Source: Candidatus Woesebacteria bacterium (GTDB lineage: Bacteria > Patescibacteriota > Microgenomatia > UBA8517). From it: a DNA stretch of 64,000 bases. Positions within the stretch are counted from its first letter, which is position 1, and the number at the start of each line of letters is the position of its first letter. The notes beneath the pieces are model-generated. The model did no database searches. It was not told the origin of the DNA and saw only the letters and a program-made list of their open reading frames with translations. The position numbers were made by a program, and so were the translations under genes. The stretch spans positions 564,790 through 628,789 of the forward strand of contig OY970314.1 of NCBI GenBank assembly GCA_963716475.1. The letters are read 5' to 3'. Below, piece after piece: positions 40,847 through 46,819 of the stretch.

Positions 40847-41296
40847 TTAAGTTATTCCGAATTGTAGCAAAAAAGTCTGAAACTTTTTGGGAAGCCTGGG
40901 TAAAAATCTGTAAATTAAGTAAATAACCACTCCCGCTCCAATTCCGTCTATAAAAACGTCCCTTACCCTGGCTTCCCTGCCTTGGGTAAACATTTGATGA
41001 AATTCGTCGGTTGCTCCATAGAAGAATGCCGAAATTACCGCCCATATTCCAGCTTTTTGGCGGCTGAGTCCCTGTCCGACTAATGCACGGTAAATCAGAA
41101 CCGCAAGTGCCCCAAAAAGAAGAAAGTGTCCTATTTTTTTAACTGCAAAGTCCTGCCAATAAATTTGTGAGGCAATCGGAATTGTCCCTGAGGAAAATTT
41201 ATATATAAGACCGGCCCACAAAAGCACCGGAAGCCACAGGTTAAGAGATTTGATTATTTTTACCTTCACTCTCAGTATTATAGCTTTTTTTGGCAC
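40847..41296 (-). CDS. VanZ-like membrane protein
   Basis: Motif GATDEFHQMFTQGREARVRDVFIDGIGAGV is the VanZ signature. The tracked start overlaps the upstream LTD gene by 56 nt, so the true start may be an internal TTG. Confidence 0.6.
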   Translation of the reverse strand: MPKKAIILRVKVKIIKSLNLWLPVLLWAGLIYKFSSGTIPIASQIYWQDFAVKKIGHFLLFGALAVLIYRALVGQGLSRQKAGIWAVISAFFYGATDEFHQMFTQGREARVRDVFIDGIGAGVVIYLIYRFLPRLPKKFQTFLLQFGIT

Positions 41297-42353
41297 TCTT
41301 AATAATACTGAAAACCGAAAAACCTATCAGTCCCGTGCCTAAAATGACCAACCCGACGGCTGCCAACGGAAATTTTACCTTTGGATTTTCGGTCAGATTT
41401 TGGGCAGGCTCTGGTGCCTGCGGACTTGAAACAGTCACACCCTCACCTAAAACGGTGGACTCCGTTATATTAATTGGGGTTGAGCTTGGGGTTTGGGTAG
41501 CAACAGGGGTCGTCGACCGGGTTGGGGTTGGAGCGGGAGTTTTGGGTGGAATCGGACTAGGAGAGGGAGTCGGGGAAATAGTAACCTGTTTATTTAAAAC
41601 CGGGTTCACTTCCATATTCATCCCGTTCAGAAGATCCCTCGTATCTTCCCAACTTGTATAATTATCTTTTCTTAGACTGATAATGTGTATGCCGAAGTCA
41701 CAACTTATCCCCAAATAGCATTCATTCCCCGGATAAAATTCCAAGATTTCATCATCCTCGTGGTGAATATAATGCCCGTCGACATAAATTTGAACACTGG
41801 TTAACTCCGAACCTGCACCATCTTCGGGTTTATTAATTTTGTATATTGCCTTGGACGGTGTTTGCGTCGGATTGGGAGAAGGAGTCGGGGTAGGTTTAAA
41901 ATTACCGGAGCCTATTGTCCATGTTAAATTCATCTGCCAAACGTCTGAGGCGCCAGGAATTCTTCCCGTACTTTTATCCGCATCCGGTGTGCCGACAGCG
42001 TCACCGCTATGACCATAGATCACTGAATTTATAAGATCATCCGAAGCATCTTTTAAATTAATGGCATCTCCGCCGGAATTATTTAGCCACCCCTGAAGTC
42101 TTTCAAATACAAAGAATCCGTTTCCCGGAATTACTCCCGATAAGTTTTCTATATGATTTGCTTCATCTACAAGTTTCCATCCCGTTAAATTAATGTCAGT
42201 TGGTCCGACATTATAAAGTTCCACCCACTCGGGATTACTATTGGAGCTAAATTCATTTATTACAACCTGGGCACGGACGGTTCGGGTAGTAAACAAGAAC
42301 ATTATCAATCCAAATATTACTGCCGTAATATTTTCCCCAACGATTCGATTCAT
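41241..42353 (-). CDS. secreted lamin-tail-domain (LTD) protein with Pro/Thr-rich linkers and C-terminal membrane anchor
   Basis: LTD signature VVINEFSSNSNPEWVELYNVGPTDINLTGWKL. A signal-like N-terminus is present. PTPTPSPNPTQTP and PSPSPIPPKTPAPTP linkers. A C-terminal hydrophobic helix followed by a lysine-containing tail. Confidence 0.7.
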   Translation of the reverse strand: MNRIVGENITAVIFGLIMFLFTTRTVRAQVVINEFSSNSNPEWVELYNVGPTDINLTGWKLVDEANHIENLSGVIPGNGFFVFERLQGWLNNSGGDAINLKDASDDLINSVIYGHSGDAVGTPDADKSTGRIPGASDVWQMNLTWTIGSGNFKPTPTPSPNPTQTPSKAIYKINKPEDGAGSELTSVQIYVDGHYIHHEDDEILEFYPGNECYLGISCDFGIHIISLRKDNYTSWEDTRDLLNGMNMEVNPVLNKQVTISPTPSPSPIPPKTPAPTPTRSTTPVATQTPSSTPINITESTVLGEGVTVSSPQAPEPAQNLTENPKVKFPLAAVGLVILGTGLIGFSVFSIIKSAKKSYNTESEGKNNQIS

Positions 42354-42453: not shown

Positions 42454-43647
42454 TTAATTGAAGCTTGCGGTAAAAACCATTTTGATATTATTAACGGAAT
42501 ACTTGTCCCCAAAATTTTTGTCTCCCCCATTCTCCAAGAAGGGGTCATTCATCACATAATTACCACCGCTGCCGCTTTTCAGGACTATATAGTGATCAGG
42601 GCCCGAGTAAAGACCGACTATCACGGGACCTATTGATAACTTCTGGTCAAGCTCCGAGGTAGATACGGAATTTAAGTTTACATTTATGCCATTCACACTA
42701 AATTGCCAATATAAAAGAGCTGTATCGGAATTCGGACTAAAAAAAGCGCTTGGAGTATTGGCAATATCGACGGGCTTAAGATTTTTCCCCGCGTGGGTTG
42801 CCATCATTGCCACGGAAGTGACCAAACAACCATAGTCCGCCATGGTCAGATGACTTGAACCCAGGTAACCATTTCCCCACTCCCCGTCTCTTTGGTTATA
42901 GTAATATCCCCAGGAACCCTGTTGAACCGTTTGATTTTGCAAAATCGAAGCGCCGCCCTGAGAGTTAACGAAAGAGAGAAATGAGTTTCTCTGGGCAATA
43001 GCCTGAGCCAATAACGACTGGTATTTAACCTCATCGTTTTTTGTGGCGATAAGAAGATTATTTTTAGCCACTTTTTGAGTATTTAAATTTGTCTGCTGTG
43101 TTTGCAGCTGTTTTTGCAAAGTTTCCTGATCTGCTTTTTGACCCTGATAGCTCGTTTGCGCGGTTTGTAATTTATCTAGCAGGCTCCTGTCTTCCTCTTG
43201 GATTTTTTGAAGATAATGAAGCCTGGAAACCGCGTCCGTCAGATCAGTTGCGGAAAGAATAAAAGTAAAATTATTCTCAAATCTTGAAAGTTTGTAGGTT
43301 TCGACAGCTCTTGATGAAAAAGCGGCGGTCAAGGAAGTTAGTGAATCTCCAAGTTGGACGATTCTTCCACCCAAAAGTGCAATTTGATCTTGAGTCTGGG
43401 AAATCTTGAGAGTGGTTAATTTTATTTGGGCATTAAACTGGGCAATTTGATTTGAAAGAGTCCCTGCTTGCTTTTGAAGAACGGTTATTTGTTTACTGCA
43501 TTCATCCGCAACCTGCTGACAGCTTGCGCTATCATTACAGCTATCCGTACAAGATACGGCAAGAATTCTCCCGTGTGTTATCAGCAGAAAATAAATTCCG
43601 GTTAAGAGGATTATGAAAAGTAAACATTTCTTTCCATTTATTTTCAT
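42454..43647 (-). CDS. coiled-coil protein with C-terminal C39-like (Peptidase_C39_2) cysteine peptidase domain. PcsB-like putative FtsEX-coupled cell-wall hydrolase
   Basis: Signal or TM N-terminus. About 200 aa of Q/L-rich heptad sequence. C-terminal motif YGCLVTSVAMMA with a downstream H (GPDHYIVL). It lies immediately downstream of ftsE-ftsX with a 4-nt overlap. Confidence 0.6.
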   Translation of the reverse strand: MKINGKKCLLFIILLTGIYFLLITHGRILAVSCTDSCNDSASCQQVADECSKQITVLQKQAGTLSNQIAQFNAQIKLTTLKISQTQDQIALLGGRIVQLGDSLTSLTAAFSSRAVETYKLSRFENNFTFILSATDLTDAVSRLHYLQKIQEEDRSLLDKLQTAQTSYQGQKADQETLQKQLQTQQTNLNTQKVAKNNLLIATKNDEVKYQSLLAQAIAQRNSFLSFVNSQGGASILQNQTVQQGSWGYYYNQRDGEWGNGYLGSSHLTMADYGCLVTSVAMMATHAGKNLKPVDIANTPSAFFSPNSDTALLYWQFSVNGINVNLNSVSTSELDQKLSIGPVIVGLYSGPDHYIVLKSGSGGNYVMNDPFLENGGDKNFGDKYSVNNIKMVFTASFN

Positions 43648-44558
43648 CTCGCTTTTTTAACTCTCGAGATTGCGATCAAACTCCCTGAAAGGGCAAGTAT
43701 CGCACCGGTAGCAATTTCAATAGTGAATATTATTCCAAACAGCTCAAAAATTCCCAGCGCGTCCCGGGGCAGGATCGGAATTTCTCCAAAATAGGCAACA
43801 ACCGTAGGAGCCAGGTATAAAACCGCAATAAACGAAATTGCCCATCCTAATATCACACCAAAAAGCGTATACATAAAAGCTTCGATGATTATCGGGCTTC
43901 TGATAAATCCTTTGGTTGCTCCGATTAAATTAAGAATTTCCACTTCCTCTCTCCTACCGACTACCCGCATGCTGGTTATTACAAGAAGAACAACCAGGGA
44001 TGTTGCGACCAGGAGACCCACAAACACAATTCCACCTATTCTTACGTAAGTAGTAATAGTTTTTAACCTCGCAACAACATCGTTTAAGCTGGTCTCGCCA
44101 CCGAGAGCCGCCGTAAAACCGACCGAATCAACAATAGTTTCACCTTTGACTTTATCGATAATACTTTGGGCAAAAGACAGATCAGTTACCGAAAACTCAA
44201 GCGATGCCGGAAAAATTGACGGGCTCACGAGTTGCCCCAGAAGGGGGTTATCGCTTGTCGCTTTTTTATAAATCGACAGGGCTTCCTCTTTACTCACGTA
44301 TTTAATGTCTTTTATATGCGTATCCGCGGAAAGATTGTGCTGTAAATTGGCAATATCGGTATCCGTCGCGTCGGACTTTAAAAATGCAATTACCTGAGGT
44401 CTGGTCTCAAAATAAGTAATCAGTTGTGACGAAGAATAGACCAAAACCGACACTATGGTTATAACAAAAAATGTAAGCGTAAGAACAAAAGAGGCGGCAA
44501 TCGCCTGAAACGGAGAACGCCTGATGTAATCCCAGGCAGTTTTAAAATGAATGTTCAT
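43644..44558 (-). CDS. ftsX: cell division permease-like protein FtsX
   Basis: 304 aa. N-terminal TM, periplasmic domain and three C-terminal TMs (FtsX topology). Coupled to ftsE. Confidence 0.85.
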   Translation of the reverse strand: MNIHFKTAWDYIRRSPFQAIAASFVLTLTFFVITIVSVLVYSSSQLITYFETRPQVIAFLKSDATDTDIANLQHNLSADTHIKDIKYVSKEEALSIYKKATSDNPLLGQLVSPSIFPASLEFSVTDLSFAQSIIDKVKGETIVDSVGFTAALGGETSLNDVVARLKTITTYVRIGGIVFVGLLVATSLVVLLVITSMRVVGRREEVEILNLIGATKGFIRSPIIIEAFMYTLFGVILGWAISFIAVLYLAPTVVAYFGEIPILPRDALGIFELFGIIFTIEIATGAILALSGSLIAISRVKKAR

Positions 44559-45229
44559 TTACTTTTAATTGTACCACCGACAATATTTATAACTCTTTTT
44601 TTATATTTCTTGACGATTTCCAGATTATGAGTTGCCATAATAATGGTTTTGCCCTCCTTATTTATTTTTTCAAATAGGTCCATGAGATTGTCTGAAGTTT
44701 CCCAATCAAGATTTCCGGTAGGCTCATCCGCCAAAAGAATTTTAGGATTAACTGCCAAAGCCCTGGCCAGAGAAACTCTTTGGAGTTCGCCTCCGGACAA
44801 TTGCGACGGGAAAAGATTTGTCTGCCTGGAAAGTCCTGCAAGCTTTAATACATGTTCCACTCTTACGTCCCACTCAGCTTCCGGAAGCCCTATTACGGCG
44901 AGAGCAACCGCTACATTTTCGGCAACTGTGCGTTCAGGGAGAACTTTGAAGTCCTGAAAAACTGTTCCGATTTTTTGGCGGTATCGGGGCAGATCCTTGC
45001 TATCCACCTTTGAAATGTTAAATCCGTCAACCGTTACTTCTCCTGTATCGGCAGTAACCTCCCCCAGTATCAATTTCAAAATCGTGGTTTTTCCGGCACC
45101 GGAAGGACCGGTAATAAATATAAATTCGCCATTTTTTACATCAAAAGTAACATCGCTCAAAGCAATCAGAGAACCAAATCTTTTGGTGACACCTTCAAAA
45201 TGAACTATTCCGGTTTCTTCCTTTGGCAT
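44555..45229 (-). CDS. ftsE: cell division ATP-binding protein FtsE
   Basis: Walker A GPSGAGKTT, ABC signature LSGGELQRVSLARAL and Walker B LLADEPTGNLD. Confidence 0.9.
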   Translation of the reverse strand: MPKEETGIVHFEGVTKRFGSLIALSDVTFDVKNGEFIFITGPSGAGKTTILKLILGEVTADTGEVTVDGFNISKVDSKDLPRYRQKIGTVFQDFKVLPERTVAENVAVALAVIGLPEAEWDVRVEHVLKLAGLSRQTNLFPSQLSGGELQRVSLARALAVNPKILLADEPTGNLDWETSDNLMDLFEKINKEGKTIIMATHNLEIVKKYKKRVINIVGGTIKSK

Positions 45230-45287: not shown

Positions 45288-45719
45288 TTATGGTGTCACT
45301 TGAACTTTGGCTACGTCCATCAGCCAGCCAACCTTTTTTGAAGCTAGGGTTTGACCCCAGATTTGTACCTTTCTGTCAATAAAATTAGTCAGATCTACCA
45401 CGCTCGAGGTCAAATAAACATACTTGGAGGCTCCCCCGTCACGAACCAGATGAAAAGTCCCCTCTCCGTTAAGCCCGCCCGTTTGTATAACCCCCGTCGC
45501 GGTGTCATATGTAACTTTAGGGTCCAGTGCACCTGCTTCATTTGAGGTCGCTTTAGTTCCCGGCGCAGCCGTTGAAGTTCCTTTCGTCATACGTCCGGAG
45601 ATTATCCAGGCGGTTCCAACACCCACTAAGATCACCAAAAAGGCTCCAACCAGATATGGCCAAACTTTTTTAATTCCGCCTTTTGGAAAAGCACTAACGA
45701 CCGTATTCTGAGGTTCCAT
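45288..45719 (-). CDS. hypothetical membrane-anchored protein
   Basis: Single TM (VWPYLVGAFLVILVGVGTAWII) followed by a soluble domain. The start is re-called to MEPQNTVV. Confidence 0.5.
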   Translation of the reverse strand: MEPQNTVVSAFPKGGIKKVWPYLVGAFLVILVGVGTAWIISGRMTKGTSTAAPGTKATSNEAGALDPKVTYDTATGVIQTGGLNGEGTFHLVRDGGASKYVYLTSSVVDLTNFIDRKVQIWGQTLASKKVGWLMDVAKVQVTP

Positions 45720-45769
45720 ATTCCTACCACAATATAACACTAAAAAAAGCAAAAACGCAAATCAGGTAA

Positions 45770-46819
45770 CTAAAGCTTGAGTTCCGCGTCAACAAACTCG
45801 TCAATTTCCCCGTCAAGCACAGCTTCTGTATTTCCGGTTTCAATATCGGTGCGAAGATCTTTAACCATTTTGTAAGGGTGAAGAACATAGCTCCTGATCT
45901 GGGTTCCCCATGAGGCCGGACGGTAGTCCCCCTTAAGCTCTTTTTTTACCCCCTTTGCGACTTCCTGCTGCATCAGCCAAAGTTTACCGCGAAGTAGCTC
46001 CAGAGCGATTTTCCTGTTTTGTTCCTGAAAACGCTCCGTAGAAGCGGTAATAACTATACCCGTTGGGACATGAGTAAGCCGTACTGCCGTAGCAACCTTG
46101 TTTACATTTTGACCACCGTGCCCTCCGGCGTGGATAAACTGCCAATCAAGGTCTTCATCTTTAATTTTAACGTCTTTAAGATCAACGTCCGCAAGTTCCG
46201 GTATAACTTCAACCAAAGCAAAAGAGGTTTGTCTGAGCTTATCCGCATTAAACGGAGATTGCCTGACAAGTCTGTGTGTACCGGCCTCACCCTTGAGGTA
46301 GCCGTAGGCATAATGCCCCGTAACCTTGAAGGTAATGCTCTTCACCCCGGCCTCTTCCCCCGCTGTATAATCCAGTGTCTCCGTAGGCCACCCCTTACGC
46401 TCACAGAAGCGTAGGTACATACGATACAGCATGTTAGACCAATCCATAGCTTCCGTGCCTCCCTGACCCGCGTGTACCGAAACTAGGGCATTTTTAGCAT
46501 CGTATTCACCGGAAAGATAGGATATTAGCTCCAAGCGTGAGAGTGTCTTTTCGGCTTTCCTTACCTCAGCCTCATCCTGCACCTCTTTTAGAATTTCCAT
46601 CGTCTCCGAAAGCTCGGTTATTTCCCCTACTTCCTTCTTAAGATCCGAAAGCTCCTGGTTAACGGCTCTGGCATTAGTTGGGTCACTCCAAAGATTCGGT
46701 TCGGCAGCTTTAGCCTCAAGGTCTTCTATTTTTTTCTTTTTATCACCAAGTTTAATCACCCCGATAAGTTTATCGAGCCGCGCCGATTGTTCATCAATTT
46801 TTTGTTTGAGATCCTGCAT
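45770..46819 (-). CDS. prfB: peptide chain release factor 2
   Basis: SPF tripeptide (RQSPFNA) and GGQ motif (HAGGHGGQNVNK). The single ORF is contiguous and colinear with the RF2 N-terminus. Confidence 0.9.
   Translation of the reverse strand: MQDLKQKIDEQSARLDKLIGVIKLGDKKKKIEDLEAKAAEPNLWSDPTNARAVNQELSDLKKEVGEITELSETMEILKEVQDEAEVRKAEKTLSRLELISYLSGEYDAKNALVSVHAGQGGTEAMDWSNMLYRMYLRFCERKGWPTETLDYTAGEEAGVKSITFKVTGHYAYGYLKGEAGTHRLVRQSPFNADKLRQTSFALVEVIPELADVDLKDVKIKDEDLDWQFIHAGGHGGQNVNKVATAVRLTHVPTGIVITASTERFQEQNRKIALELLRGKLWLMQQEVAKGVKKELKGDYRPASWGTQIRSYVLHPYKMVKDLRTDIETGNTEAVLDGEIDEFVDAELKL

Follow-up and report, generated by a model that had tools for sequence, protein, structure and literature searches.

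A secreted coiled-coil C39-like peptidase encoded with FtsEX in Patescibacteria is a probable FtsEX-controlled cell-wall hydrolase

Introduction

FtsEX is the conserved switch by which a dividing cell permits its wall to be cut. According to a 2024 review, the partners it acts on carry only degenerate LytM, CHAP or NlpC/P60 domains, and in RipC and CwlO a papain-like cysteine peptidase is controlled directly by FtsEX (PMC11627006). Can another enzyme family be placed under the same control? The question is raised by a genome of Candidatus Woesebacteria, in which ftsE and ftsX are followed by a gene for a 397-aa protein that joins a coiled coil to a domain of the Peptidase_C39_2 family. A catalogue of endolysins includes this family among their enzymatically active domains (PMC8223927), and the N5 domain of mycobacteriophage LysA matches a C39-like peptidase of Bacillus anthracis (PMC3314691).

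The arrangement matches known FtsEX-controlled wall cutters, and the enzyme family has not been reported in that role. A literature search turned up neither a published account of an FtsEX partner of the C39 type nor a biochemical demonstration of peptidoglycan cleavage by any Peptidase_C39_2 domain. Here, we analyse the locus within the window, that is, the whole stretch of 64,000 nucleotides examined, and compare it with related loci in other Patescibacteria. The 397-aa protein is probably an extracytoplasmic FtsEX partner, an FtsEX-activated and autoinhibited septal cell-wall hydrolase of the PcsB/CwlO/RipC kind built on a different papain-like family.

Results

The coiled-coil gene belongs to an ftsEX operon

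In the window, ftsE, ftsX and the 397-aa gene are three consecutive minus-strand ORFs (Table 1). Direct reading of the sequence gives a 4-nt ATGA overlap at both the ftsE/ftsX and the ftsX/397-aa-gene junctions. The first-pass annotation had placed all three ORFs, and the overlap downstream of ftsEX, correctly. This organization is widely kept. The order prfB, small transmembrane (TM) protein, ftsE, ftsX, coiled-coil gene recurs in 71 of 75 loci (about 70 patescibacterial genomes), and among the 65 related loci with a measurable junction the ftsX stop and the coiled-coil gene start are at most 30 nt apart in 64, with the identical 4-nt overlap in 28. With spacing and order this regular, the association of ftsEX with the coiled-coil gene is not a matter of chance; FtsX identities across the coupled loci span about 30% to 86%. 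The prfB-ftsE-ftsX synteny occurs in Firmicutes too. Operon linkage to ftsEX is not universal for the coiled-coil/C39 family, and in a distant Pacebacteria-type branch the coiled-coil gene sits after gltX, away from ftsEX.

Table 1. Positions in the window of the ftsEX locus and of predicted features of its products
Feature	Position	Strand	Basis or remark
Small protein with N-terminal TM helix	45288..45752	-	between prfB and ftsE; syntenic in ~68/75 loci
ftsE, ABC ATPase, 224 aa	44555..45229	-	TIGR02673 and ABC_tran matches
ftsX, membrane mechanotransmitter, 304 aa	43644..44558	-	FtsX_ECD and FtsX permease matches
FtsX extracellular domain, residues 55-146	44121..44396	-	Pfam FtsX_ECD
Coiled-coil/C39-like peptidase gene, 397 aa + stop	42454..43647	-	4-nt overlap with ftsX
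Signal peptide or N-terminal membrane helix, residues 1-30	43558..43647	-	predicted from sequence
Cys-rich stretch (C33, C37, C43, C50)	43498..43551	-	caps alpha1 at its N-terminal end
Coiled-coil helix alpha1, residues 40-125	43273..43530	-	AF2 pLDDT 80-95
Hairpin tip/loop, residues 126-135	43243..43272	-	low AF2 confidence
Coiled-coil helix alpha2, residues 136-229	42961..43242	-	AF2 model and relatives
Peptidase_C39_2 catalytic domain, residues 230-397	42457..42960	-	PF13529, model, profile matches
Q252 (caa), predicted oxyanion-hole Gln, YYNQRD motif	42892..42894	-	invariant; codon verified
C274 (tgt), predicted catalytic nucleophile, YGCLVTS	42826..42828	-	invariant; aligns with 3erv GC.VTS
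H352 (cac), predicted catalytic His, GPDHYIV	42592..42594	-	aligns with 3erv and 6mpz His
D368 (gac), predicted third triad residue, MNDP	42544..42546	-	invariant

The small protein encoded upstream of ftsE is listed as an ORF of 154 aa from a TTG start, but the likely start is an ATG at 45719, which gives 143 aa. It has no match in Pfam, NCBIfam or PDB sequences, and its membership in the FtsEX system is uncertain. A secreted LTD-domain protein is encoded directly downstream in the window, and likewise in many loci. The 64-kb window contains neither another ftsX, nor an M23 cargo, nor a paralogue of the coiled-coil partner. A promoter and terminator scan gave no enrichment over shuffles, and operon boundaries were not obtained from it. 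A reading of the locus as a defence system was dropped, the PADLOC scan having returned generic ABC-ATPase and coiled-coil matches only.

Both a genuine FtsE and an FtsX with an extracellular domain are present. FtsE scores 263.1 bits against the FtsE model TIGR02673 (cutoff 264.85), matches ABC_tran at E 1.3e-36, and retains intact ATPase motifs in its translation (Walker A GPSGAGKTT, signature LSGGELQR, Walker B LLADEPTGNLD). FtsX matches FtsX_ECD (PF18075) over residues 55-146 at E 1.3e-13 and the FtsX permease domain (PF02687) at E 2e-10, scores 131.8 bits against TIGR00439, under the cutoff of 255, and matches the FtsX chains of all solved FtsEX complexes (8hd0, 8i6o, 8tzj and 8idb). Its extracellular domain is presumably the docking site for the coiled coil, a role assigned by analogy with the solved FtsEX-EnvC and FtsEX-RipC complexes (summarised in PMC11627006).

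The 397-aa protein is predicted to be exported and carries a long coiled-coil hairpin

Three parts make up the 397-aa protein: the signal peptide comes first, two helices then form a coiled-coil hairpin (residues ~40-229), and the Peptidase_C39_2 domain lies at the C-terminus. Its export is predicted from the N-terminus, where a K-rich n-region and a hydrophobic core are followed by ILA and then VSC, with an AF2 helix over residues 5-24 and an A30 that is nearly invariant among homologues. A lipoprotein anchor at C33 was considered and discarded, since the preceding residues form no lipobox. The Cys-rich stretch pointed out earlier near the N-terminus (CTDSCNDSASCQQVADEC, residues 33-50) is indeed there, but only C33 is nearly invariant, and relatives carry two to four Cys at variable positions; a disulfide or an autoinhibitory role for it could be imagined.

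In the AF2 full-length model, a helix over residues 40-125, a tip and a helix over residues 136-229 precede the globular domain; pLDDT falls below 50 over the tip residues 124-133, and at an overall pTM of 0.47 the inter-domain packing is uncertain. A long antiparallel hairpin N-terminal to a globular domain in an exported protein is what FtsEX-controlled wall cutters have, and wall activity is predicted for this one. The Pfam family CC_PcsB scores 26.2 bits over residues 107-164, across the hairpin tip, just under its cutoff of 27 and with the proviso that coiled-coil HMM matches can be compositional; 31 of 36 homologues match it. The NCBIfam PcsB model gives a collinear but weak match over residues 6-217. 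The best matches of a full-length fold search include EnvC (of V. cholerae FtsEX-EnvC), PcsB and the N-terminal domain of RipA, all weak, and we take this search as weak support because generic coiled coils (SMC, toxins) dominate it. A PDB-sequence profile search with the full-length alignment returned only tropomyosin and GCN4-type coiled-coil noise, and a domain-only profile was therefore used instead.

The C-terminal domain is a predicted C39-type papain-like peptidase with conserved catalytic residues

Peptidase_C39_2 (PF13529) matches the 397-aa protein with 28.7 bits, above its gathering cutoff of 24, and 35 of 36 homologues match it at E <=1e-3. Neither CHAP nor NlpC/P60 gives a Pfam match at E up to 1 in the 397-aa protein, and NlpC/P60 gives none across the homologue family; with no Pfam match, both identities were rejected. 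Of the Peptidase_C39_2/CHAP-type domain proposed in the first-pass annotation, the first half thus holds and the CHAP half falls away, and its suggestion that the coiled coil carries a peptidase family other than those of the known partners is borne out. The bacteriocin-processing family Peptidase_C39 (PF03412) reaches 18.4 bits, under its cutoff of 22, and the N-terminal ABC-exporter fusion of that family is not what is seen here: the domain ends a secreted protein of its own, and the ABC system next to it is FtsEX, not a PCAT. A bacteriocin system of the PCAT type was likewise rejected, as the FtsX here is genuine and the transporter carries no C39 domain.

The domain alone (residues 230-397) is modelled as an alpha/beta fold with pLDDT 92.8 and pTM 0.90, and its model and profile neighbours are C39-type papain-like peptidases, including ComA, PCAT1 and LahT; the structure prediction that had been proposed for this region came out as confident. 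The domain-only profile retrieves 3erv (E 9.3e-6) and 6mpz (E 0.007) from the PDB, with the Cys and His-Asp motifs in register. The motif YGCLVTSVAMM and the His noted earlier correspond to C274 and to H352 in GPDHYIV. The peptidase reading had been staked beforehand on conservation of this Cys-His pair, and the pair is kept throughout together with Q252 and D368, in 36 close homologues, in 150 representatives (clustered at 50% identity and reaching down to ~32% identity) and in a further alignment (A3), the single exception being one H to Y at H352 among 143 aligned representatives. The domain is accordingly predicted, from sequence, to be catalytically competent. A tblastn search of 50,697 phage genomes with the catalytic domain found no relative, so it has no direct endolysin relative there; one relative is a LysM-LysM-C39_2 protein.

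C39_2 and M23 domains replace one another on the same coiled coil

In 25 related genomes, the homologous coiled coil encoded at this locus bears an M23 metallopeptidase domain, unrelated to C39_2, which is circularly permuted but intact, with HxH and HxxxD ligands; the metal ligands are kept in 25 of 26 M23-cargo cases. The two cargo types are interspersed across the phylogeny and are interchangeable on one coiled-coil scaffold. For example, loci L005 and L043 share 92-95% DNA identity on both sides of a swapped catalytic cassette of ~520 bp, to which their difference is confined. Helix alpha1 is conserved in C39-cargo and M23-cargo relatives alike, whereas distal alpha2 (from ~195) co-varies with cargo type. 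The coiled coil stays conserved where the cargo is replaced, suggesting a constrained partner of its own.

Discussion

How might such a protein work? After export through its N-terminal signal peptide, the long antiparallel two-helix coiled coil would dock onto the FtsX extracellular domains, while the C-terminal domain with Gln252, Cys274, His352 and Asp368 would be kept inactive at rest. ATP binding and hydrolysis by FtsE would cause a conformational change, transmitted via FtsX and the coiled coil, that releases the peptidase, and the daughter cells would separate once the released enzyme had cut a bond, peptide or amide, of the septal peptidoglycan. As in monoderm bacteria, the enzyme itself would be under direct control, with only the catalytic family carried as cargo being different. 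We infer FtsX binding, autoinhibition, peptidoglycan as the substrate and the kind of bond cut: that the coiled coil binds the extracellular domain of FtsX is suggested by the conserved operon coupling, and peptidoglycan hydrolysis by the M23 interchange, the LysM-fused relative and the endolysin catalogues. The first-pass reading of a secreted coiled-coil C39-like peptidase encoded with ftsEX, analogous to PcsB, CwlO, RipC and EnvC, is supported by the operon, the CC_PcsB and C39_2 matches and the conserved residues.

Comparison with each of these systems shows what is shared and what differs. Like PcsB of Streptococcus pneumoniae, the protein is predicted to be secreted, and its N-terminal coiled coil, of similar length and matching CC_PcsB, is joined by a short linker to a predicted papain-like Cys/His domain at the C-terminus; PcsB is among its top, though weak, full-length structural matches. 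Unlike PcsB, it carries Peptidase_C39_2 rather than CHAP, its modelled coiled coil is a simple two-helix hairpin rather than five helices, and against the NCBIfam equivalog NF046104 it reaches 21.8 bits where the cutoff is 450, over the coiled-coil region only, which leaves it outside that family. RipC (Mycobacterium/Corynebacterium) and CwlO (Bacillus subtilis) share the two-helix hairpin, the segment that connects its helices at the tip (called 'Lip' in RipC) and a papain-like cysteine peptidase at the C-terminus, but without an NlpC/P60 match the protein does not belong to their family. Their systems use the cofactors SweC/SweD and SteAB, none of which was identified here, where the small uncharacterised TM protein is conserved upstream of ftsE. 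With EnvC (E. coli, Vibrio, Pseudomonas) it shares the order of a coiled-coil hairpin and then a globular domain at the C-terminus; EnvC of the FtsEX-EnvC cryo-EM structure 8tzl is among its top structural matches (TM 0.40-0.45), and sister genomes bear cargo of the M23/LytM family on the same scaffold, though circularly permuted. EnvC is non-catalytic and activates amidases, whereas both cargo types here keep their catalytic residues. Finally, C39-like peptidases such as 3erv (B. anthracis), ComA, PCAT1 and LahT have the same Gln/Cys/His/Asp arrangement and, as predicted, the same fold family, but they either consist of one domain or form the N-terminal, leader-peptide-cutting domain of an ABC exporter, unlike a predicted extracytoplasmic protein with a PcsB-type coiled-coil fusion, paired with a non-transporting FtsEX.

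That last likeness raises the alternative that the C39-like head processes proteins or peptides, with FtsEX and the coiled coil doing no more than position or gate it at the envelope; possible substrates would be double-glycine-type leaders, pilins or a surface protein, for example the LTD protein encoded nearby. The characterised clan relatives (Peptidase_C39: ComA, PCAT1, LahT) do cut double-glycine leader peptides, a gene for a potential substrate lies directly downstream in the window and at many loci, and C39_2 itself is without an established substrate, its substrates being treated as unknown in a 2023 classification of papain-like enzymes (PMC10318531). We nevertheless consider this alternative unlikely. 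Recurrent exchange with intact M23, a peptidoglycan endopeptidase family, on the same scaffold in near-identical genomes is hard to reconcile with it, as are the LysM-fused relatives, the Peptidase_C39 score below cutoff (18.4 vs 22) and the fact that every known FtsEX coiled-coil partner acts on peptidoglycan (PMC11627006).

It is quite unlikely that the coiled-coil protein is a secreted autolysin independent of FtsEX, with adjacency reflecting co-expression, as for FtsEX-independent coiled-coil NlpC/P60 proteins. The branch unlinked to ftsEX would fit such independence, but pcsB and envC are likewise unlinked to ftsEX in their hosts; the 397-aa gene, unlike pcsB, lies inside the ftsEX operon. 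Control of RipA without FtsEX is documented in Corynebacteriales (PMC9897464). Against an independent autolysin stand the coupling kept in 64 of 65 loci over such divergent FtsX proteins, the match to the PcsB coiled-coil family over the tip region, and a coiled coil conserved through cargo replacement.

Very improbable is the view that the papain-like domain does not hydrolyse wall peptides but acts on them as a transferase or ligase, with transglutaminase- or acyltransferase-like chemistry. The papain-like clan does contain acyltransferases (BtrH_N), and phytochelatin synthase is close to C39 and C70 (PMC10318531), but the domain has no match to BtrH_N-type or phytochelatin synthase families, and interchange with hydrolytic M23 cargo favours hydrolysis. 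Least probable of all is a catalytically dead adaptor activating another hydrolase, as the degenerate LytM of EnvC does on amidases, since, despite EnvC being a precedent for FtsEX acting via a non-enzymatic coiled-coil adaptor (PMC11627006), the Gln-Cys-His-Asp set is conserved across the 150 diverse representatives bar the one H to Y, and the alternative M23 cargo, unlike EnvC, retains its metal ligands.

If the protein is an FtsEX-activated hydrolase, the list of FtsEX partners would grow by one more catalytic family, C39_2, the large and functionally obscure Peptidase_C39_2 family would gain a concrete physiological context, and the likely cell-separation enzyme of a major uncultivated branch of Patescibacteria would be identified. 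The precise and recurrent exchange of C39_2 and permuted M23 cassettes on one scaffold also amounts to a natural experiment, from which the coiled coil would seem to be a mechanotransmission module that works whatever its cargo. This would be useful for dissecting how FtsEX relieves autoinhibition and for engineering chimeric regulated lysins.

Why are the cargos exchanged at all? A doubtful idea is that the coiled coil is a fixed FtsEX-docking adaptor, and that recombination swaps C39_2 and permuted-M23 warheads on it, together with the distal alpha2 and linker segment belonging to each, even where the genomes are near-conspecific. If so, the fast turnover of warheads would suggest diversifying pressure on the division hydrolase, perhaps from inhibitors, phage or host factors, or from a role of the enzyme beyond self-division, for example on a host cell wall, these Patescibacteria being largely epibiotic. 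Simple neutral equivalence of the cargos is the less interesting alternative. As for existing annotation, pipelines already label the protein "CwlO-like" (JGI) or "C39 family peptidase".

The coiled-coil gene is coupled to ftsEX in a clade-specific operon

As the first-pass annotation had read the locus, ftsE and ftsX are directly followed by a gene for a secreted coiled-coil protein of 397 aa. Both junctions (ftsE/ftsX and ftsX/397-aa ORF) are 4-nt ATGA overlaps in the raw sequence, and the three ORFs are translationally coupled. In FtsE, the Walker A, signature and Walker B motifs are all intact, and its TIGR02673 score is 263.1 bits (cutoff 264.85). FtsX contains FtsX_ECD and FtsX permease domains (Pfam), and it matches its counterpart chain in every solved FtsEX complex (E. 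coli, P. aeruginosa, V. cholerae and M. tuberculosis).

Scanning one genome per species yielded 75 loci, every one of which belongs to Microgenomates-type Patescibacteria (Woesebacteria, Collierbacteria, Pacebacteria and Shapirobacteria). The order prfB, small transmembrane (TM) protein gene, ftsE, ftsX and coiled-coil gene is found in 71 of them, the upstream DNA or the prfB match being missing in the other four. The ftsX stop lies at most 30 nt from the coiled-coil start in 64 of 65 measurable loci, with the same 4-nt overlap in 28. In a distant branch labelled Pacebacteria or Parcubacteria (family P0254), the gene for the coiled-coil C39_2 protein lies away from ftsEX and consistently follows gltX (glutamyl-tRNA synthetase); the linkage is therefore clade-specific. 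Linkage to ftsEX is also lacking for pcsB and envC in their own hosts. FemAB-family and POTRA (FtsQ-like) genes lie near the distant-branch locus L076.

Coordinates of the window operon, of the modelled segments of the 397-aa protein and of ORFs at related loci
Feature	Sequence	Position	Strand	Remark
prfB	window	45770-46819		upstream of ftsE
Small membrane protein gene	window	45288-45752	-	between prfB and ftsE
ftsE	window	44555-45229	-	224-aa ORF
ftsX	window	43644-44558	-	304-aa ORF
Coiled-coil/C39-like gene	window	42454-43647	-	397-aa ORF
Secreted Lamin-tail-domain (LTD) protein gene	window	41241-42353	-	downstream of 397-aa ORF
N-terminal hydrophobic helix	397-aa protein	residues 5-24		AlphaFold2 model
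Coiled-coil helix alpha1	397-aa protein	residues 40-125		AlphaFold2 model
Hairpin tip	397-aa protein	residues 124-135		AlphaFold2 model, low confidence
Coiled-coil helix alpha2	397-aa protein	residues 136-229		AlphaFold2 model
Alpha/beta domain	397-aa protein	after residue 229		AlphaFold2 model
M23 coiled-coil ORF	L043	4941-6143
M23 coiled-coil ORF	L046	4995-6128
Coiled-coil C39_2 ORF after gltX	L076	5001-6341
Coiled-coil C39_2 ORF after gltX	L077	5001-6338
Coiled-coil C39_2 ORF after gltX	L079	5001-6311

The coiled coil carries a C39_2 head

By its Pfam assignment, the 397-aa protein is a member of Peptidase_C39_2 (residues 249-358, 28.7 bits vs cutoff 24). Of the proposed resemblance to C39_2 or CHAP-type peptidases, the C39_2 part is thus borne out, and neither CHAP nor NlpC/P60 appears among the Pfam matches at E up to 1. 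A bacteriocin-processing C39 identity is rejected, with Peptidase_C39 reaching 18.4 bits, below its cutoff of 22. CC_PcsB scores just under its cutoff (residues 107-164, 26.2 bits vs 27), and the NCBIfam PcsB equivalog is collinear over residues 6-217 but reaches 21.8 bits against a cutoff of 450.

An AlphaFold2 full-length model built from 36 homologues (mean pLDDT 82) has the same hairpin-plus-head layout as EnvC, PcsB and RipC. Its top Foldseek matches include EnvC of the V. cholerae FtsEX-EnvC complex (8tzl_E), PcsB (4cgk) and the RipA N-terminal domain, all weak and sitting among generic coiled coils. Modelled alone, the C-terminal domain is predicted with very high confidence (pLDDT 92.8, pTM 0.90). 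Its PDB neighbours are papain-like and C39-type, namely the C39-like domain 3b79, PCAT1, peptidase domains of ComA, 3erv from B. anthracis and PeiR, a pseudomurein endoisopeptidase, with weak Foldseek support (none reaches E 1e-3). The domain-only sequence profile gives a clearer picture: it retrieves 3erv (E 9.3e-6) and 6mpz, the double-glycine protease LahT (E 0.007), and in both the Cys motif GC.vTS.AM and the His-Asp motif H..V...DP line up.

The motif YGCLVTSVAMM and a His, noted earlier in the C-terminal domain, were found, the His within GPDHYIV. All 36 homologues (identity >=56%) carry Q252, C274, H352 and D368 unchanged. A HMMER search of the whole library with the domain gave 405 clusters (50% identity) at E 1e-3 or better; among the best 150 of them, with identity down to ~32%, Q, C, H and D are kept in every aligned sequence except for one H to Y. 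The Cys-His dyad, whose loss in homologues had been expected if the original idea were wrong, is conserved. Judged by these residues, the C39_2 head is a catalytically competent papain-like peptidase, and a dead-adaptor reading is disfavoured. In 109 of the same 150 best clusters the domain sits at the C-terminus, preceded by >200 aa, and the subfamily is therefore largely dedicated to the coiled-coil architecture.

The N-terminal Cys-rich stretch CTDSCNDSASCQQVADEC is also present; C33 is its only nearly invariant Cys, and relatives carry 2-4 Cys in this region. Directly before YYNQRD, a CxxWGC Cys pair is found in most family members (columns of the close-homologue alignment at residues ~241-247 of the window protein). 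In the window protein, as in its closest relatives, this segment reads QQGSWGY and contains no Cys.

The catalytic domain is exchanged for a permuted M23 domain

Approximately one third of the 75 loci match the window protein only over residues 1 to ~231, and their ORFs, of the same size, end in a Peptidase_M23 domain (about 25 genomes: L041, L043, L046, L048, L050-L056, L058-L061, L063-L065, L067, L069-L071 and L073-L075). From its motif order, this domain looks circularly permuted: the HxH (HLHFE) segment, profile positions 61-96 in Pfam, comes first, and the HxxxD (HxGxD) segment, positions 2-52, follows 70-78 residues later. The YLHV strand typically lies only a few residues from the end of the protein. 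Of 26 M23 cargos, 25 have both ligand motifs intact. No description of a permuted M23 domain was found in the searchable literature. Proteins with either cargo share a conserved coiled coil, in which R113, Y118, Y145, L146 and D153, among others, are near-invariant.

Loci L005 (C39_2) and L043 (M23) share 92.0% DNA identity over 5.6 kb upstream, through coiled-coil residue 225, and 95.4% over 4.5 kb downstream, whereas the ~520 bp encoding the catalytic domain (L005:5614-6133 vs L043:5614-6127) are not alignable. In other close pairs the 5' breakpoint maps to residues 194 and 214. The 5' breakpoints fall in distal alpha2 (residues ~194-225) and the 3' breakpoint is the stop codon, so the cassette consists of distal alpha2, linker and catalytic domain. 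In a neighbour-joining tree built from concatenated PrfB, FtsE and FtsX sequences (43 C39-type and 25 M23-type loci), the two types are interspersed, with at least seven sister pairs of different cargo. What is more surprising about this system is the exchange of cassettes and the permutation of the M23 domain. A precise replacement of this kind is also seen in L010 versus L046 and L048.

Substrate and proposed mechanism

The strongest indirect evidence for action of the C39_2 head on the cell wall is that it is repeatedly swapped for an intact M23 domain, from a classic family of peptidoglycan endopeptidases, while the FtsEX-linked scaffold stays unchanged. Catalogues list Peptidase_C39_2 among the enzymatically active domains of endolysins from phages of Gram-positive hosts (PMC8223927, PMC13284279), and the mycobacteriophage LysA N5 domain matches a B. 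anthracis C39-like peptidase (PMC3314691). Together with a LysM-LysM-C39_2 relative (P0230, 450 aa), these records are indirect support for a wall substrate; a 2023 classification of papain-like peptidases regarded C39_2 substrates as unknown (PMC10318531). P0230 and P0261, a 1090-aa protein with TM segments and the same subfamily at its C-terminus, are other wall-associated architectures.

The sequences compared here show operon coupling, domain architecture, sequence-level catalytic competence and cargo interchangeability. By analogy to the solved FtsEX-EnvC and FtsEX-RipC complexes (PMC11627006), the coiled coil would dock on the FtsX extracellular domains with the head autoinhibited, and the FtsE ATP cycle would free the head to cut septal peptidoglycan. 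Inhibition might come from the alpha1 N-terminal end with the Cys-rich cap, from the conserved linker GGASIL.NQT or from the part of distal alpha2 that is specific to the cargo.

The system would work like PcsB, CwlO and RipC but belongs to none of these families, having neither the CHAP domain of PcsB nor the NlpC/P60 domain of CwlO and RipC. The suggestion that the partner's head comes from another peptidase family than those of known FtsEX hydrolases holds. A 2024 review lists only LytM, CHAP and NlpC/P60 among FtsEX partners (PMC11627006), and no account of such a partner came up in literature searches that paired FtsEX with C39 or Patescibacteria. Annotation pipelines have labelled proteins of this family "peptidoglycan hydrolase CwlO-like protein" (JGI) or "C39 family peptidase" (NCBI), so the similarity is implicitly on record already. 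The identical protein sequence is already deposited in NCBI and ENA.

Record titles and neighbouring genes

Among MAG records with this Patescibacteria-type locus, many bear the title 'uncultured Gammaproteobacteria bacterium' or 'uncultured Pseudomonadales bacterium' (L005, L008, L013, L014, L016, L017, L022, L023, L025, L030, L031, L033 and others). L005 is among them, though 92-95% identical to a Woesebacteria MAG, and the taxonomy in these titles is apparently mislabelled or a placeholder.

The small TM protein, an N-terminal TM helix with an extracytoplasmic domain of ~100 aa, is kept between prfB and ftsE in ~68 of 75 loci and has no match in Pfam, NCBIfam or PDB sequences; by loose analogy to SweD or SteB, it might be an FtsEX cofactor. 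The LTD protein is secreted; it has a stalk rich in Pro, Thr and Ser and a TM anchor at its C-terminus. It lies just 3' of the coiled-coil gene in the window, and LTD matches lie there in ~25 loci. At one locus (L057) the coiled-coil ORF of 625 aa extends into an LTD domain, through either a possible frameshift or a possible fusion.
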